From contig JANMLN010000005.1 of assembly GCA_031372565.1 (NCBI GenBank), forward strand, positions 1 to 35,434: a stretch of 35,434 nt of DNA. The letters are read 5' to 3'. The DNA is from Gemmatimonadota bacterium. GTDB taxonomy: Bacteria; Gemmatimonadota; Gemmatimonadetes; Gemmatimonadales; Gemmatimonadaceae. This document shows positions 948-35,126 of the stretch, piece by piece. The notes beneath the pieces are model-generated. The model was not told the DNA's origin and searched no databases. It saw only the letters and a list, made by a program, of their open reading frames with translations. The translations under genes and the position numbers were made by a program. The first letter of the stretch is position 1, and every line of letters starts with the position of its first letter.

Positions 948-1027
948 TGTCGTCCTGAGCAAAGCGAAGGACCTGCTTTCCTTGCAACGCGCGAAGAAGC
1001 AGGTCCTGTGCTCGGCTCAATACGACA
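948..1027. repeat. Inverted pair of REP-like palindromic elements (BIME-like)
   Basis: TGTCGTCCTGAGCAAAGCGAAGGACCTGCTT (948-978) and a degenerate inverted copy (997-1027), directly after the stop codon. Confidence 0.85.
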
Positions 1028-3810: not shown

Positions 3811-3890
3811 CTATTCACACAAACTGATTGGGTATTTCAGTGCAGTATTAGAACTATATCACGACATAAAAAGGACACTTGTCCGTAAGT
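3811..3890. other. AT-rich intergenic island between divergent genes
   Basis: 29 G+C in 80 nt (about 36%) against roughly 70% flanks; contains an ACTGA-N9-TCAGT inverted repeat at 3823-3841. Confidence 0.6.
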
Positions 3891-4014
3891 CATACCGCCG
3901 TGCGAATCACCGATTATCGTCGGTAGTGTCGATCGCGCGGCCGGCTCGCCCCGCCCGACCACCCGCGGAGCGGCCATCCCGTCCGACGCGCGACGGGTAG
4001 CTTTGCCGCGTGCG

Positions 4015-5286
4015 ATGCGCCCGCCCTCTCCCGTCTCCGTGTTGACCGTCGCTGCCAGGTCGCCCTCCGCGCAGGTCGAACCGGATCATGATCCGCGTCG
4101 GTGGCGCATCCTCGCCCTCCTCGCGATCGCCGAAGTGCTCGGCATGTCGCTCTGGTTCGCCGGGAGCGCGGTCGCGCCGCAATTGGCGGCCCAGTGGGGG
4201 CTCGCGCCGACGCAGCTCGGCTGGCTCACCTCGGCGGTGCAGCTGGGGTTCGTGCTCGGCACGGCGGTGATCGCGCTGTTCAACCTGGGCGATCTGGTGC
4301 CGGCGCGCTGGCTGTTCGCGGTGAGCGCGATGATCGGCGCTGCGGCAAACGCGCTGGTGCCATCGGCCGAGTCGGCGGCGTGGGGGCTCGCGCTGCGCGG
4401 GATGACGGGCGTGGCGCTCGCGGGGGTGTATCCGCCGGCCATGAAGATGGCGTCGACCTGGTTCCGGGCGCAGCGCGGGCTTGCCGTGGGCACCGTGGTC
4501 GGCGCGCTCACGGTGGGTTCTGCGAGTCCGTGGCTGGTGCGCGCGCTCTTTCCCGGGGCGGCGGTCGGTCCGGTGATGGCGAGCGCGAGCGTTGCCGCAC
4601 TCGTGGCGTCCGTGCTCGTGGCGGCGTGGTACGAGGATGGTCCCTACCCGTTCACGCCGCGGCCGTTCTCGTGGGGGTTGGTGGGGTCGGTGGTGCGCTC
4701 GCGGGAGTGGCGACTCGCGACGGGCGGCTATCTGGGGCACATGTTCGAGCTGTACAGCGCGTGGACCTGGCTCGCCGCATGGATGACCGCGAGCCTCGCG
4801 TCACGTGGGGACGCTGCGTGGAGCGGCGCTGCGCCCCTGTTCGCCTTCATCACCATCGCGAGTGGCAGCGTGGGCTGCGTGTGGGGCGGCGTGTTGGCCG
4901 ACCGGCGCTCGCGTGCGTGGCTCGTGACGCGGGCACTCGCGGTGAGTGGCGCCTGCTCGCTGCTGCTCGGCCTGCTCTTTGGCGCGTCCTGGTGGCTCGT
5001 GGTACCGGTGGCGATCGTGTGGGGCGCCGCGCTGGTGGGAGACAGTCCGCAGTTCAGCGTACTGGTCACCGAGAGCGTGCCGTCGCATGCGGTCGGCACG
5101 GCGCTCTACGTGCAGGTGTCGCTCGGTTTCCTGCTCACGTTGGTGAGCATTCAGCTGGTGCCACCGCTCGCTGCGTTGATCGGGTGGCAGTGGGTGTTCA
5201 GCGGACTGGCGATCGGTCCTGCGCTGGGCATCTGGAGCATACGAAGGCTGACGACGCGCGCCACCCCGGTGACCGCGGGCGGCTGA
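4015..5286 (+). CDS. MFS transporter
   Basis: About 12 hydrophobic segments, VQLGFVLG, GVYPPAMK, GYLGHMFELY, GVLADRRSR; exact start uncertain. Confidence 0.9.
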   Translation: MRPPSPVSVLTVAARSPSAQVEPDHDPRRWRILALLAIAEVLGMSLWFAGSAVAPQLAAQWGLAPTQLGWLTSAVQLGFVLGTAVIALFNLGDLVPARWLFAVSAMIGAAANALVPSAESAAWGLALRGMTGVALAGVYPPAMKMASTWFRAQRGLAVGTVVGALTVGSASPWLVRALFPGAAVGPVMASASVAALVASVLVAAWYEDGPYPFTPRPFSWGLVGSVVRSREWRLATGGYLGHMFELYSAWTWLAAWMTASLASRGDAAWSGAAPLFAFITIASGSVGCVWGGVLADRRSRAWLVTRALAVSGACSLLLGLLFGASWWLVVPVAIVWGAALVGDSPQFSVLVTESVPSHAVGTALYVQVSLGFLLTLVSIQLVPPLAALIGWQWVFSGLAIGPALGIWSIRRLTTRATPVTAGG

Positions 5287-5287
5287 G

Positions 5288-5908
5288 CTATCGGCCGCCG
5301 CGGTCGAGCTTGGCCAGCGCGTCCATCACCATCTTGTTCGTGGGCCGGACCTTGTAGTTCACCTCGGTGACCTTCCAGCGCACGATCCCCTGCCGGTCGA
5401 TCACGTACGTGCTGGGGTGTGGCCAGCCGGGGCTCTGTTCGTTGAGGATGCCGTACCGGTTGATGACGGTGTGCGCAGAGTCCGACAGGAAGGTGAAGGT
5501 CGGAGCGCCGCCGCGTGCCGTGACCTGTCGCGCCATCTTGGCGAGCAGGTTGGGCGGATCGATCGAGAGTGCGATCAGTTCCGCGTCCTGGCGGCCAGCG
5601 TCATCGAGGAGCCCATTCAGCTGCACGAGCTGATCGGTGCACCACGGTCACCAATGTCCTCGATAGAAGACGAGGATGATGTTCTTCTTGCCGCGGAACT
5701 GCGACAGGGTGACCGGCGTGCCGTCCTTGCTCGGCAGCGTGAAGTCTGGCGCGGCCATGCCGATGGCGACGCGGCCGGTGTCGGCCGGGGGCATCGATGC
5801 GCCGTCGCGAGGGCCGAAGGCGGGCGGTGTGGCCTGCGCCGAGAGGGCGGAGGGGAGGAGGGCCAGCGCGAGGGCGAGCGCGCGGGAGATGAGCGGGAGA
5901 GGGCGCAT
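5288..5908 (-). CDS. Exported peroxiredoxin/redoxin (AhpC/TSA-like) selenoprotein, Sec at codon 87 (TGA 5650-5648), 206 aa
   Basis: ORFs 5648-5908 and 5288-5626 are in the same frame; read-through gives APDFTLPS...LVFYRGHW-U-PWC-TDQL...LIALSID...PSTYVIDRQGIVRW, a complete thioredoxin-fold protein with UxxC; signal peptide ending ALSA-Q. Confidence 0.88.
5613..5637 (-). promoter_or_regulatory. Candidate bacterial SECIS hairpin
   Basis: mRNA CCG-A-UCAGCU-[CGUGC]-AGCUGA-A-UGG; the apical loop begins 20 nt after the UGA and has G at loop position 2. Confidence 0.7.
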
Positions 5909-5957: not shown

Positions 5958-6035
5958 AGAAGCAGGTCCTTCGCTTTGCTCAGGACGACGGGTTAGGGCC
6001 GGTCCTTCGCTTGGCTCACGCCGACGGGTTAGGGC
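5958..6035 (-). repeat. Two tandem REP-like copies (36-bp period)
   Basis: GGTCCTTCGCTTTGCTCAGGACGACGGGTTAGGGC (5965-5999) and GGTCCTTCGCTTGGCTCACGCCGACGGGTTAGGGC (6001-6035). Confidence 0.8.
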
Positions 6036-7091: not shown

Positions 7092-7457
7092 CTACCGCAG
7101 CGGTTCCGCCGCTGGTGCCTCGGTCGACAGCCGGTGGAAGACCGCATCGCGCACCACCTGGCCGTCGCGCAGGTGCTCGGTGACGATCCGTTCGAGGAGG
7201 GCCGGGGTCACGTTGGCATACCACACCCCCTCGGGGTACACGACCAGCACCGGCCCGCCCTCGCAGACTCCCAGGCAGGGGGTTTCCCCACGCTTCACCC
7301 GGTTGGGGCCGAACAGCAGTCCCTCGCGCTGCAGCAGCTGGGCCAGCTGCGAGTACAGGCCGCGGCCGCGCCGATCGGGGGAGCAGTATCCCCCGACACA
7401 CACGAGCACATGGCGCGCGTAGGGCGCCATTTCCGGAGGTCCGTTGCCGATTCGCAT
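7092..7457 (-). CDS. Thioredoxin-like [2Fe-2S] ferredoxin
   Basis: RHVLVCxxxx[29 protein letters not shown]; alternative start 7430. Confidence 0.9.
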
Positions 7458-7623
7458 AGCTCGCGGATGCTAGTGGGCGGCCCGGCGAGCGCAACGGGGT
7501 GGCCGCGCTAGCTTTCCATACATGCCGTCGCCCGAGGAGTCGTTCTCGACCTCAGGGCCGGAACGGCACTTCCCATCCTGTCGCCGACGGCGCCCGCATC
7601 GGGTGACCGACTCCGGAGTTCGC

Positions 7624-8520
7624 ATGGCTGTCCAGTCGTTGCCTCCCGACCCGCGTACGGCCGCCAAGGGCTACGCGCACCCCGAGATGCTGGTGTCCAC
7701 CGAGTGGGTGGCCGAGCACCTCGCGGATCCGAACGTGCGCATTCTCGAGAGCGACGAGGACGTGTTGCTGTACCACTCGGGCCACATCCCGAACGCGCTC
7801 AAGATCGACTGGCACGAGGATCTGAATGATCCCGTGATGCGCGACTACCTCGCGCCCGAGGCGTTCGAGGCGCTGGTGCGCCGGCTGGGCATCTCGAGCG
7901 AGACGACCGTGGTGTTCTACGGCGACAAGAACAACTGGTGGGCCTGCTACGCCTTCTGGGTGTTCCAGCTGTTCGGCTTCGGGAACTGCCGCGTGCTCGA
8001 CGGCGGGCGCATCAAGTGGGAAGCGGAAGGTCGGCCGATGGTCACCGACACGCCCACCGTGGCGCCGTCGACCGTGACCGTCGGGCGCCGCGATGACCTG
8101 CGCATCCGGGCATTCTTTGGCGAGGTGCTCGCGCACATGGCGTCGAAGCGGCCGTTGATCGATGTCCGGTCGCCGCAGGAGTACACCGGCGAACGCACGC
8201 ACATGCCCGACTACCCGCAGGAAGGGACGCTACGCGGCGGCCACATCCCGGGTGCCAGGAGCGTGCCGTGGGCCCGCGCCGCGAACCCTGATGGCACGTT
8301 CAAGTCGGCAGACGAACTGCGCGTGATCTACGAGGGCGAAGCGGGGTTGCATCCCTCCGACGAAGTGATCGCGTACTGCCGCATCGGCGAGCGCAGTTCG
8401 CACACCTGGTTCGTGCTCACCTACCTGCTCGGCTACACGAGCGTCCGGAACTACGACGGCAGCTGGACGGAGTGGGGGAATGCCGTACGTGCACCTATCG
8501 AGAAGGGGACCGGCACATGA
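7624..8520 (+). CDS. Double-domain rhodanese sulfurtransferase (SseA/CysA type)
   Basis: LVSTEWV, GHIPNA, GHIPGA, active site [26 protein letters not shown] at 7615-7618. Confidence 0.95.
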
Positions 8521-13514: not shown

Positions 13515-13958
13515 ATGTCGACGCTCCTTGCTCCCGTACGCCCGACCTTTCGCGCGCTGGCCGAAGCCATGGTGCCGGCGACGCAGCACTATGGTGCGGC
13601 CGAGTGGGCGGAGATGGAAGCGATGGTGGAGACGGCGCTCGGCGCCCGACCGCGCGCCCTGCAGCAGCAGCTGCTGACCTTCGTGCGCGTGGTGAACCTG
13701 CTGGCCGTGCCGTTGAGCGGGCGCACGCTGGTGGCGCTGCGTGCCGCGGCGCGCGAGCGGGTACTGCATCGGCTGGAGCGCGCACCGGTGGCGTTGCTTC
13801 GGCGGGGTGTCTGGGGGGTGCGGACGCTGATTTTCATGGGGCACTACGCGCGTGTGCGGGACGGGGGCCGTGGTCGTGGGGGGGGCGAGGGGGGTGGTGG
13901 TTTGCCACCAGAAAAAACAGAAGCAGGTCCTTCGCTTCGCTCAGGACGACGGGCGTGA
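13515..13958 (+). CDS. Gluconate-2-dehydrogenase subunit-3-like small partner of the GMC oxidoreductase
   Basis: FRALAEAMVP...RERVLHRLE..LLRRGVWGVRTLIFMGHY; TGATG coupling to the GMC gene; tail is low-complexity and REP-derived. Confidence 0.7.
   Translation: MSTLLAPVRPTFRALAEAMVPATQHYGAAEWAEMEAMVETALGARPRALQQQLLTFVRVVNLLAVPLSGRTLVALRAAARERVLHRLERAPVALLRRGVWGVRTLIFMGHYARVRDGGRGRGGGEGGGGLPPEKTEAGPSLRSGRRA
13919..13953 (-). repeat. REP-like element within the coding frame
   Basis: AGAAGCAGGTCCTTCGCTTCGCTCAGGACGACGGG, a full consensus copy. Confidence 0.85.
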
Positions 13959-23052: not shown

Positions 23053-23087
23053 GGGAGAAGCAGGTCCTTCGCTGCGCTCAGGACGAC
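23053..23087 (-). repeat. REP-like element
   Basis: GGGAGAAGCAGGTCCTTCGCTGCGCTCAGGACGAC, 13 nt downstream of the M14 stop. Confidence 0.85.
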
Positions 23088-32427: not shown

Positions 32428-32535
32428 TGTCGTCCTGAGCGAAGCGAAGGACCTGCTTGTAAGGTCGTCGCTGAGCGCAGCGAAGGACCCGCTTCTCCCG
32501 TCGTCGCAGAGCGCAGCGAAGGACCCGCTTCTCCC
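32428..32535 (+). repeat. Three head-to-tail REP-like copies
   Basis: Copies at 32428-32458, 32464-32499 and 32500-32535, between convergent glpD and greA. Confidence 0.88.
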
Positions 32536-33180: not shown

Positions 33181-34002
33181 ATGATCCATCTCGAAACGCA
33201 CGGCCCCGTGGTCCGCGCCGAGTTCACGACGAGCCGAACACGACTCATCGGGATCTCGGTGAGCGCGTACCTGCACAAGGGGGTGGTGATCGATACCGCA
33301 TTCCCCGACGTGCGACAGGAGTTCCGCGACTGGGTCAAGGCGACGCGCGCGGGTGGCGTGGCGGTGACGCACCAGCATGAGGACCACGCCGGCAACGTGA
33401 ACTCCGTGCTCAAGCTGGGGCTCCCCGTGTGGCTTGCGGCCGACACGCATGCGGCGCTGCGCGCGGTTGGGCCGATCGGCTTCTACCGGCACTTCACGTT
33501 CCGGGCGATGCGTTCGCTCACGCGTGAGGTCGTGCCGTTCGATCCATCACCGATCGTGCCGATCGCGACTCCCGGTCATTCGAGTGATCATCATGTGTTC
33601 TGGGACGCGGATGACGAGATCCTCTTTGCCGGCGACCTCTTTCTCGGCATCAAGGTGCGTGTGGCGCATGCGAACGAGGACCCACGCGCGCTCGTGCGGA
33701 GTTTGCGCGCATGCGCCGCGCTCAGGCCGCGGATGATGTTCTGCGCGCACCGTGGGTTGGTCGAGGAGCCGACCGCTGCGCTCTCGGCCAAGGCCGACTG
33801 GCTGGCGCAGTTGATCGATGAGTGCGACCGGCTGATCGATGCCGGGTGGGGCGACGCGGCCATCCGCAACGCCGTGTTCGGTCGCGAGGACGTGTCGCGC
33901 TACTTCTCGTTCGGCGACTACTCGCGCGGCAACCTGGTGTACGCGATCCGCTCGACGCGCGTGACGAGCGCGGCCGCGCGAGAAGGACCCAGCGTGCAAT
34001 AG
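33181..34002 (+). CDS. Metallo-beta-lactamase fold hydrolase
   Basis: [30 protein letters not shown]. Confidence 0.92.
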
Positions 34003-34043
34003 CGCGGTACGGCTGTTTGAAGGCGGCACCGGTAGGCTGCAGG

Positions 34044-35126
34044 ATGACTACCGCCCCGCGCACCGTGCTCGGTGCTCTGGATGAAGTGATCCAGCGCAAG
34101 CATTACTCGCCGAGGACCGGCGAGGCGTACCGGTATTGGCTGCGACGCTACGTGCGGCATCATGCCGGTCGGCATCCACGGGAGATGGATGCGCTGCAGG
34201 TGGAGCAGTTCGTGTCGTACCTGGCCACGCACGAGCGGGTGAGCGCGAGCACGCAGAATCAGGCGCTGGCCGCGCTGCTGTTCTTGTATCGTGAGGTGTT
34301 GGGGCAGCCGCTCGCGATGCGTGGGCACCATCTGCTGGCGAAGCGACCGCACCGGGTTCCGAACGTGCTCACGCGCGACGAGGTGGGCGACGTGCTGCGG
34401 GTGATGCGCGGTATGCCGAAGCTGATGGCGGCCTTGCTGTACGGCAGCGGACTACGGCTCCAGGAGTGCTGTCAGCTGCGCGTGAAGGAGCTGGACTTCG
34501 CGCGGGGCGAGGTGCTCGTGCGGGGCGGCAAGGGGCAGAAGGACCGGGTGACGATGCTGCCCGAGTTCGTGGACGAGGCATTGCGCGCGCACCTCCGGTT
34601 CGTGGCAGCGCAGCACGCGCTGGATGTGCGCGCCGGCGGCGGGTACGTGTCACTGCCCCATGCACTGGAGCGGAAGCTGGGGAGCCGAGCGGCGCGGTCG
34701 CTGGCGTGGCAGTGGATCTTTCCGGCGACCAGGCAGCAGACCGCGAGCGACGACGGTCGCCGGCGGCGGCATCACCTGCACGAGACCGTACTCCAGCGCG
34801 CCGTGACAGCAGCGGCGGCAGCGAGTGGGATGACGAAGCGGGTGACCTGCCACACGTTCCGTCACTCGTTCGCGACGCACCTGCTGGAGGCGGGGTACGA
34901 CATCAGAACCGTGCAGGAACTGTTAGGGCATCAGGATGTGAGCACGACGATGATCTACACGCACGTCCTGAACCGCGGTGGGTTGGGGGTCCGGAGCCCG
35001 CTGGACTTGGGGGCGGCGCGGGTCGGTCACGCGCAGTACCGAGCGCCGATGGGAGGTGGTGCGCGGGAGCGGCTGCTCGCTGGGATGGAGCCGGTGGATG
35101 ATCCGCGTGACTTGGGTCGGGATTAG
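34044..35126 (+). CDS. intI: Integron integrase
   Basis: [36 protein letters not shown], integron-specific insertion [49 protein letters not shown]. Confidence 0.96.

Follow-up and report, generated by a model that had tools for sequence, protein, structure and literature searches.

The window analysed herein, a 35,434-nt stretch comprising positions 1 to 35,434 of contig JANMLN010000005.1 from a Gemmatimonadota bacterium, carries on its minus strand a single reading frame of 206 codons, which runs from an ATG at 5908 to a TAG at 5290–5288 and has a TGA at 5650–5648 as its sole interruption. We consider this to be the gene for a probably exported, 206-residue selenoprotein of a known peroxiredoxin (Prx)-like family, in which the UGA is read as selenocysteine (Sec, U) at the first position of a UxxC motif, and put the probability of this reading at roughly 0.86. 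The open reading frame (ORF) listing splits the gene into two, at 5648..5908 (86 aa, ending ...VFYRGHW) and at 5288..5626 (112 aa, from an internal GTG start). The initial annotation had joined these fragments across the TGA, and re-derivation of the translation bears this out, returning a read-through product of 206 aa with the motif FYRGHW-U87-P-W-C90. Pfam AhpC-TSA (PF00578) matches residues 49–178, thus spanning the TGA, with a score of 104.4 bits (cut-off 26; E-value 5.2 × 10−30), and Pfam Redoxin also matches the read-through protein (E-value 1.1 × 10−21). The 119 codons located 3′ of the TGA stay open and have a coding-type G+C content at third codon positions (GC3) of 0.88; within the whole window, this is the only in-frame TGA that is flanked by coding-type GC3 on both sides.

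Relatives of the gene were taken from a scan of one genome per species, which yielded 593 confirmed examples (the window's own record not being amongst them), the best 80 of which form the locus sample used below. The codon aligned with 5650–5648 is TGA in 45 of these 80 loci and TGC or TGT in 35, in keeping with the original expectation that homologues with the AhpC/TSA domain would harbour Cys or Sec in this column. The TGA forms derive from Gemmatimonadota, Acidobacteriota, Binatota, Rokuibacteriota, Myxococcota-type 'Deltaproteobacteria', Udaeobacter (Verrucomicrobiota) and an Eisenbacteria metagenome-assembled genome (MAG), whilst full-length protein relatives, with identities of up to 61 %, display FYRGHW-C-P-[YFW]-C.

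It had been suggested that annotation pipelines would split such a gene, and public protein sets indeed hold the family either cut at ...YRGHW or read through with Trp. A search of a large protein set returned 114 matches, and amongst the 20 sequences retrieved, all seven N-terminal fragments end at ...YRGHW and five 113-aa fragments represent the C-terminal half. In addition, 10 of the 30 best full-length sequences possess Trp in the Sec column, and every one of them maps, with 60–94 % identity, to a nearest locus with TGA at this position, from which it follows that the Trp represents a TGA called as Trp. These proteins, which read HWWPYC, are P0009, P0011, P0012, P0016, P0021, P0023 and P0026–P0029 (see, for example, L015:3402-3404); judging by the sequences, a gene caller working on short contigs has rendered the Sec UGA as Trp. 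The ten Trp-containing proteins could also be taken to mean that TGA is reassigned to Trp or Gly and that the residue is not Sec. However, TGA is an ordinary stop in the window, closing 10 of its 18 Pfam-supported ORFs, and the code is therefore not reassigned; a codon-by-codon tally of 78 loci contains no TGG; the ten proteins themselves map to TGA; and Trp would be unexpected in a catalytic Cys column flanked by a conserved hairpin. Reassignment is thus extremely improbable.

Residues within the UxxC motif vary in some Sec forms, with U-T-A-C, U-G-A-C, U-G-R-C, U-G-H-C, U-L-Y-C and U-P-D-C all being encountered (L004:10253, L005:5321, L045:4744, L046:10229, L048:10184, L077:10136, L034:5207, L037:10157, L039:3784 and L038:5239-5757 have unusual motifs). 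One Cys form has C-P-F-S, and hence no second Cys.

The UGA is followed by a stem–loop that begins 14 nt 3′ of the TGA, in which the arms UCAGCU (5633–5628) and AGCUGA (5622–5617) enclose a CGUGC loop (5627–5623). The spacing from UGA to loop is 20 nt, and the second loop base, G5626, is the apical-loop G that is invariant in the family. This hairpin, with the same spacing and loop G, was part of the initial annotation and was recovered unchanged; it is the minimum-energy structure in folds of 28, 45 and 54 nt. The annotation had also extended the stem by CCG/UGG, which does form in the fold of this copy, but is not conserved. As a family feature, the outer helix was rejected, its three pairs forming in 18, 18 and 6 of 45 sequences, respectively, and comparison of the sequences indicates that the conserved Sec insertion sequence (SECIS) is the inner helix of 5–7 bp only, with the extension being peculiar to this copy.

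The weight given to the hairpin derives from comparative data. Two alignments of 52 nt from the TGA onwards were used, one with the window and 44 TGA loci (45 sequences) and one with 34 Cys loci; L055 and L038, which were placed later, are absent from both, although by eye L055 has the same CAGCTC-GGC-GAGCTG. In the TGA set, columns 19–23 pair with 29–33 in 44–45 of the 45 sequences, and the hairpin is kept in all but one of them (L069). The closing pair 18–34 covaries (UA in 24, GC in 6, CG in 3, GU in 1, unpaired in 11), as does pair 24–28 (CG in 26, GC in 3, UA in 1, UG in 1, unpaired in 14). Overall pairing reaches 72.9 %, as opposed to at most 42.4 % with slid partners, and none of 500 shuffles matches the observed pairing or covariation. 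With numbering from the U of the UGA, G25 is invariant. Pairing of these columns amounts, amongst the Cys sequences, to only 48.5 %, which is not above shuffles (177 of 500); pair 19–33, for instance, forms in 13 of 34 sequences, and pair 22–30 in 7. Synonymous codons behave similarly, being frozen in the Sec forms (Gln CAG in 45/45, first Leu CTC in 36/44, second Leu CTG in 43/43), whilst in the Cys forms Gln is CAG in 16 and CAA in 5, with the first Leu spread over six codons and the second over five. The signature of bacterial Sec insertion that had been proposed, a stem–loop with an apical G, is therefore conserved and covarying in TGA relatives and not kept in Cys relatives.

The sequence that lacks the family hairpin, L069:10100-10151 from an Acidobacteria MAG, has TGA, with the UGA located inside the stem of a different fold; its branch in the tree is long and adjoins a Cys clade, and it may be a decaying copy or harbour a different SECIS. 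A second observation concerns the codon after the second hairpin Leu (columns 34–36; 5617–5615 in the window), which is AAA or AGA in 23 of the 45 Sec forms, and thereby provides an A that pairs with U18. At first sight, such codons looked surprising for G+C-rich genomes. A GUG loop is common to the window, L001, L002 and L011. Nothing in the window reaches the gathering score of an Rfam model, the surroundings of the gene give two chance-level matches (E-values of 5–8), and no Rfam family covers the hairpin.

Selection on the two sides of the UGA was assessed against five relatives. The ratio of nonsynonymous to synonymous substitution rates (dN/dS) is 0.30–0.43 (dS 0.8–1.3) over the 117–119 codons 3′ of the TGA, and 0.15–0.32 over the 42 codons 5′ of it, with every family-invariant residue being kept in the window protein. 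The substitution pattern thus indicates that the stretch 3′ of the UGA is translated and under purifying selection. Together with the TGA in 45 of 80 loci, this speaks for the initial interpretation, as did each of the other proposed checks that was carried out.

For the history of the Sec/Cys column, a quick maximum-likelihood tree was calculated with this column masked, containing 79 rows (the window and 78 loci, L038 and L055 being left out). The window falls within a Gemmatimonadota Sec clade, adjoining L002 and L001, and its five nearest rows by path all have TGA. Just three changes of the Sec/Cys label are needed across the 79 rows, versus a mean of 25.8 for shuffled labels. Under midpoint rooting, which makes the root and the direction of change provisional, the tree would imply one gain of Sec below a clade of 65 rows followed by two reversions to Cys, in a Gemmatimonas group of seven and a Pyrinomonadaceae group of 13. 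The gene accordingly appears, by its sequence, to belong to an old, multi-phylum clade of Sec-containing proteins. Two residues before the Sec/Cys column (residue 85, codon 5656–5654), His is present in 41 of 45 Sec forms, including that of the window, whilst the 34 Cys forms have Tyr in 22, His in 11 and Gln in one, a pattern that may point to linked changes within the active site. These data bear on the possibility that a Cys-type redoxin with TGC or TGT acquired its TGA through an error in sequencing or assembly, or by nonsense mutation in the very recent past. A single substitution would suffice for this, and 35 of the 80 relatives do have Cys; yet the window groups with TGA relatives, possesses the Sec-specific hairpin and its codons (CAG CUC ... 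CUG), which are not kept in Cys forms, and has the His typical of Sec forms at −2. We regard such an origin as very improbable.

A number of points weigh against Sec decoding in this particular genome. Neither selA, selB, selD nor a Sec tRNA was found in the window or in approximately 1.14 Mb of related loci. No Sel domains were identified in the 27 window ORFs scanned; a tRNA search found none in the window and none in the 44 TGA loci (the 80 loci and the window together gave one tRNA-Met); and a regular expression for the SelD N-terminal motif had no match in six-frame translations of the window and related loci. Taken by itself, the window hairpin is only weakly better than shuffled sequences, with z-scores of −1.6 to −2.2 at 28–45 nt (9 and 20 of 200 shuffles folding as well), and at 66 nt a different structure has the minimum energy, with no advantage over shuffles (z-score −0.47). 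This copy also departs from the family consensus in its CGUGC loop, a C.C at the seventh pair, and Val-Gln in place of Gly-Glu. Moreover, the closest locus found, L002, is only 67 % identical over the domain, such that the conservation of the TGA applies to larger evolutionary distances.

It might therefore be argued that translation simply stops at the UGA, the lineage having lost its Sec machinery or the gene being in decay, so that an 86-residue fragment or two small proteins are made. The lack of Sec machinery in the window, a hairpin one pair short of the family consensus and a fairly long terminal branch (0.39) would all fit this view. Set against it are the open, coding-type codons after the TGA, the retention of all family-invariant residues at the dN/dS values given above, and the intact 6-bp hairpin with its invariant loop G; additionally, judged by the structural model, a product of 86 residues would stop short of the active-site helix and be without most of the fold. 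Termination is consequently judged to be improbable, if less so than reassignment or error, and the gene at 5908..5288 is very probably Sec-decoded, with a bacterial SECIS.

With regard to the protein, an AlphaFold2 (AF2) model built from a 30-sequence alignment has a mean predicted local distance difference test score of 87.8, with residues 41–200 mostly exceeding 90. Its best structural match in the PDB is AhpE of Mycobacterium tuberculosis (target-normalised template modelling score 0.84–0.88, root-mean-square deviation approximately 1.9 Å, 33 % identity), followed by archaeal Bcp/PrxQ; AhpE is also the best sequence match amongst solved structures (E-value 4.3 × 10−18). Aligned to the TxxC motif of AhpE, U87 takes the place of the Thr and C90 that of the peroxidatic Cys. 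The Pro of the peroxiredoxin motif is replaced by R83, a position occupied by Arg in each of the 79 family rows, and the catalytic Arg116 of AhpE aligns with P165, within a Pro-His-Pro (PHP) signature that is invariant in the 30-sequence alignment and kept by 42 of 45 Sec forms. The position of C90 is likewise invariant in the 30-sequence alignment and is Cys in 79 of 79 rows of the family tally, and C90 is likely the partner of U87 in a selenenylsulfide.

W-C/U-P-x-C is a motif of the thioredoxin/TlpA/ResA type. As Pro, Thr and Arg are replaced and a UxxC motif is present, the protein is read as a thioredoxin-type UxxC redoxin; sequence and model together suggest a peroxiredoxin scaffold bearing a thioredoxin-type W-U-P-x-C site. 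Consequently, of the initial description as a peroxiredoxin-like redoxin, the AhpC/TSA domain and fold stand (Pfam E-value 5 × 10−30), but the catalytic residues of a peroxiredoxin do not, and 'redoxin' would seem the better term. No NCBIfam model reaches its cut-off for the read-through protein. The best is thiol peroxidase BCP (52.7 bits versus 140), with lower scores for ResA (47.7/170), TlpA (29.7/230), AhpC (24.5/272) and DsbE (16.1/123.15), and, amongst selenoprotein models, for a SelL-related family (NF040769, 35.4/120), PrxU (NF040737, 34.4/270) and a WAxxUGC family (34.2/300). There is also a weak Pfam match to SCO1/SenC, at 19.7 bits versus a cut-off of 22.8.

The N-terminus, MRPLPLISRALALALALLPSALSA before a Q, agrees in the translation with the residues originally given. 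Read by eye against the usual pattern (a positive n-region, a hydrophobic core of 10–15 residues, a small residue at −1 and a permitted one at −3), it seems to have the make-up of a cleavable signal peptide, with an n-region containing R2 and R9, an h-region of ALALALALLPSAL and a c-region of LSA preceding the Q. It contains neither a lipobox Cys nor a twin-arginine motif. A comparable hydrophobic N-terminus, with ..AQ at its end, is present in full-length homologues, and the AF2 model places a low-confidence helix at residues 7–22. From these residues, the protein is probably secreted via a signal peptide. The features of the gene are collected in Table 1.

Table 1. Positions of the predicted selenoprotein gene and its features in the window.
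Feature	Position	Strand	Basis
Whole predicted selenoprotein gene, Sec87 at UGA	5288..5908	minus	Frame, Pfam, AF2 model
Predicted cleavable Sec-type (secretory) signal peptide, residues 1–24	5837..5908	minus	Read by eye from the translation
UGA read as selenocysteine (U87), first position of UxxC	5648..5650	minus	Sec/Cys column in relatives; aligns with Thr of AhpE TxxC
TGC codon of Cys90, second UxxC position	5639..5641	minus	Aligns with AhpE peroxidatic Cys
Hairpin with outer CCG (5637–5635) and UGG (5615–5613), across an A.A mismatch	5613..5637	minus	Fold of this copy
Core SECIS hairpin, 6-bp stem UCAGCU/AGCUGA	5617..5633	minus	Folds and comparative pairing
Pro163-His164-Pro165 (PHP) codons, family signature in place of the catalytic Arg region of true peroxiredoxins	5414..5422	minus	Alignment

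For the selenoprotein proposed here, a course of events can be envisaged in which the stem–loop at 5633–5617 would recruit SelB with Sec-tRNA(Sec), leading to the insertion of Sec at codon 87, and the product would be exported with removal of its signal peptide. The selenolate of U87, exposed at the N-terminus of a helix, would then attack a disulfide, sulfenic acid or peroxide as its oxidised substrate, C90 would resolve the adduct to give an intramolecular selenenylsulfide, and a periplasmic thiol reductant would return this to its reduced state. With respect to substrate class, we infer a disulfide or sulfenate reductase, a role that we hold to be slightly better than an even prospect. Three points weigh against a firm functional assignment: the PxxxT/SxxC motif and catalytic Arg of canonical peroxiredoxins (AhpE, BCP/PrxQ, AhpC) are absent from the alignment; no family-wide conserved neighbour or reductant gene was found in the related loci; and the term 'periplasmic' is read by eye from the N-terminus alone.

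The protein could instead be a Sec-dependent periplasmic peroxidase, rather than a protein-disulfide reductase, with U87 being oxidised by peroxide to a selenenic acid that C90 resolves. Its fold and nearest solved relatives are those of peroxidases (AhpE, E-value 4 × 10−18, 33 % identity in the structural match), its best NCBIfam match is to a thiol peroxidase (BCP, 52.7 bits), and selenols react rapidly with peroxides unaided. Nevertheless, the Pro, Thr and Arg of peroxiredoxin catalysis are all replaced, and Cys-form relatives, which share this site, would make poor peroxidases without them; the motif is of the thioredoxin/TlpA/ResA type, with ResA and TlpA models also matching, below cut-off; and all matches to family models lie far below their cut-offs. 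A peroxidase is hence a possible but rather unlikely role. In a variant of this proposal, U87, C90 and H164 would bind metal in the manner of Sco proteins, for which there is the sub-threshold SCO1/SenC match (19.7 versus 22.8) and the presence of the invariant His164 beside the motif. What weight is left after reductase and peroxidase goes to other roles, metal binding included. It is doubtful, and less probable still than a peroxidase, that the exported HW-U-P-x-C clade is a separate enzyme family of soil and sediment phyla, with Sec87, Cys90 and His164 forming a new catalytic or metal-binding centre, and with Sec gained once, deep in the tree, and reverted to Cys at least twice along with a His-to-Tyr change at −2. 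Such a centre could belong to a selenol peroxidase of the periplasm or to a copper-handling protein of the Sco-like type, on a scaffold devoid of the Pro, Thr and Arg.

The selenoprotein gene is flanked by a convergent major facilitator superfamily transporter gene (3889–5286) and by small ORFs with no Pfam match, 7092–7469 being the exception amongst the small upstream ORFs. Neighbours differ by lineage, with a short-chain dehydrogenase/reductase gene directly upstream in seven loci, a ketoacyl synthase gene in seven, and Ser/Thr kinase and ATP-binding cassette ATPase genes in a few; cytochrome-maturation or DsbD/CcdA genes were not found nearby. A promoter and terminator scan gave no usable result. 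The ORF at 7092–7469 (minus strand) has a weak, below-cut-off match to thioredoxin-like [2Fe-2S] ferredoxins and lies back to back with a rhodanese-domain gene at 7474–8520 (plus strand), in which two stretches were matched; this pair is approximately 1.2–2.6 kb from the selenoprotein gene.

Elsewhere in the window, the repeat CCTGAGCRAAGCGAAGGAC occurs in nine copies with up to three mismatches, compared with 0.01 expected. These are located at 954–972 (plus), 2563–2581, 5966–5984, 6002–6020, 13927–13945 and 23064–23082 (all minus), and 32434–32452, 32470–32488 and 32506–32524 (all plus). Most copies are intergenic, with those at 954–972 and 13927–13945 overlapping ORFs, and two sets have a 36-nt spacing, one of them formed by the two copies immediately 5′ of the selenoprotein gene. 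The GTCCT/AGGAC arms of the repeat suggest, from sequence, a hairpin akin to repetitive extragenic palindromic elements. At the end of the window, 33822–35126 (plus strand) encodes a tyrosine recombinase of the phage-integrase family with an N-terminal SAM-like domain, the stop-to-stop frame of which overlaps that of the preceding ORF, with a metallo-beta-lactamase fold.

For annotation, the consequence is that the gene would be split, dropped or labelled a pseudogene, and that its family appears in public protein sets either in two halves, N-terminal and C-terminal, or with an erroneous Trp. The gene also marks this organism, alongside many Gemmatimonadota, Acidobacteriota, Binatota, Rokuibacteriota, Myxococcota and Verrucomicrobiota MAGs, as likely users of Sec; amongst the papers listed in a literature search on selenoproteins in Gemmatimonadota, titles and the openings of abstracts pointed to none about the selenoproteins of that phylum. 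The paired Sec and Cys clades, in which the hairpin comes and goes with the UGA, form a clean natural data set on the limits that a SECIS sets to codons and amino acids. The family itself is already described, and the gene adds to it without introducing a new type of system.

In comparison with known systems, the stem–loop resembles bacterial SECIS elements (Escherichia coli fdhF and the bSECISearch consensus) in its location 3′ of the UGA and its invariant loop G, here at position 25 from the U of the UGA, whilst its stem, CAGCUC/GAGCUG, is family-specific and encodes Gln-Leu-Gly-Glu-Leu. TlpA, ResA and DsbE (CcmG) are exported and have a motif of the W-C-x-x-C type that occupies an equivalent place in the structure, and the window protein is matched by both models and structures of ResA and TlpA; it scores, however, far below the NCBIfam cut-offs of these families, which are membrane-anchored and Cys-only. 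AhpE (Rv2238c; 1xvw, 4x1u), a 1-Cys peroxiredoxin, shares the fold and the position of the active-site helix, but has P..T..C with Arg116 and no second motif Cys, where the window protein has R83, Sec87, C90 and P165; it is also cytoplasmic and without Sec, in contrast to the Sec-containing and predicted exported protein described here. PrxU of Eubacterium acidaminophilum (NF040737), as presented in the relevant entry of PMC13188914, is another Sec-containing protein with an AhpC/TSA fold, although its Sec occupies the peroxidatic Cys position (PxxxTxxU), whereas in the window protein it is found three residues earlier, at that of the Thr.

The closest counterpart is the family of Prx-like thiol:disulfide oxidoreductase selenoproteins. 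The Sargasso Sea study (PMC1088965) names a 'Prx-like protein family' distantly homologous to Prx, with a predicted, thioredoxin-like UXXC active site as opposed to the TXXU of Sec-peroxiredoxin. Table 2 of the Global Ocean Sampling (GOS) study (PMC2398784) lists 'Prx-like 1' (pfam00578, UxxC) with 225 selenoprotein sequences. Tables in two reviews (PMC9312934, PMC13188914) carry a 'Prx-like thiol:disulfide oxidoreductase, PF00578, UxxC/UxxU' as a high-confidence prediction, and an entry in the 2016 survey (PMC5029168) puts this family in 28 organisms. According to the pertinent section of PMC9312934, it is the Sec motif (UxxC) by which the field delimits the subfamily, and WP_010940744.1 is named as the type member. 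Having the same domain (pfam00578) and the same Sec motif, the gene is by this criterion, and as compared by description, a member of the Prx-like 1 UxxC family. The two have in common the AhpC/TSA domain, Sec at the first position of UxxC, Cys homologues in that column and a SECIS right after the UGA. Under 'Prx-like 1', supplement file 3 of PMC2398784 includes reads with ..FYRGHWUPYC.. (GHWUP occurring 30 times and HWUPY 42 times), which is the active-site string of the family, the window copy having FYRGHWUPWC. The GOS reads in that file begin a few residues 5′ of the motif, and thus have no signal peptide and are without the N-terminal part of approximately 45 residues seen in the window protein. 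Unlike this set, the window clade is predicted to be exported and is found mainly in Gemmatimonadota, Acidobacteriota, Binatota and Rokuibacteriota MAGs; the signal peptide, the N-terminal part of approximately 45 residues and the spread in soil and sediment phyla may thus be particular to this clade within an otherwise described family.

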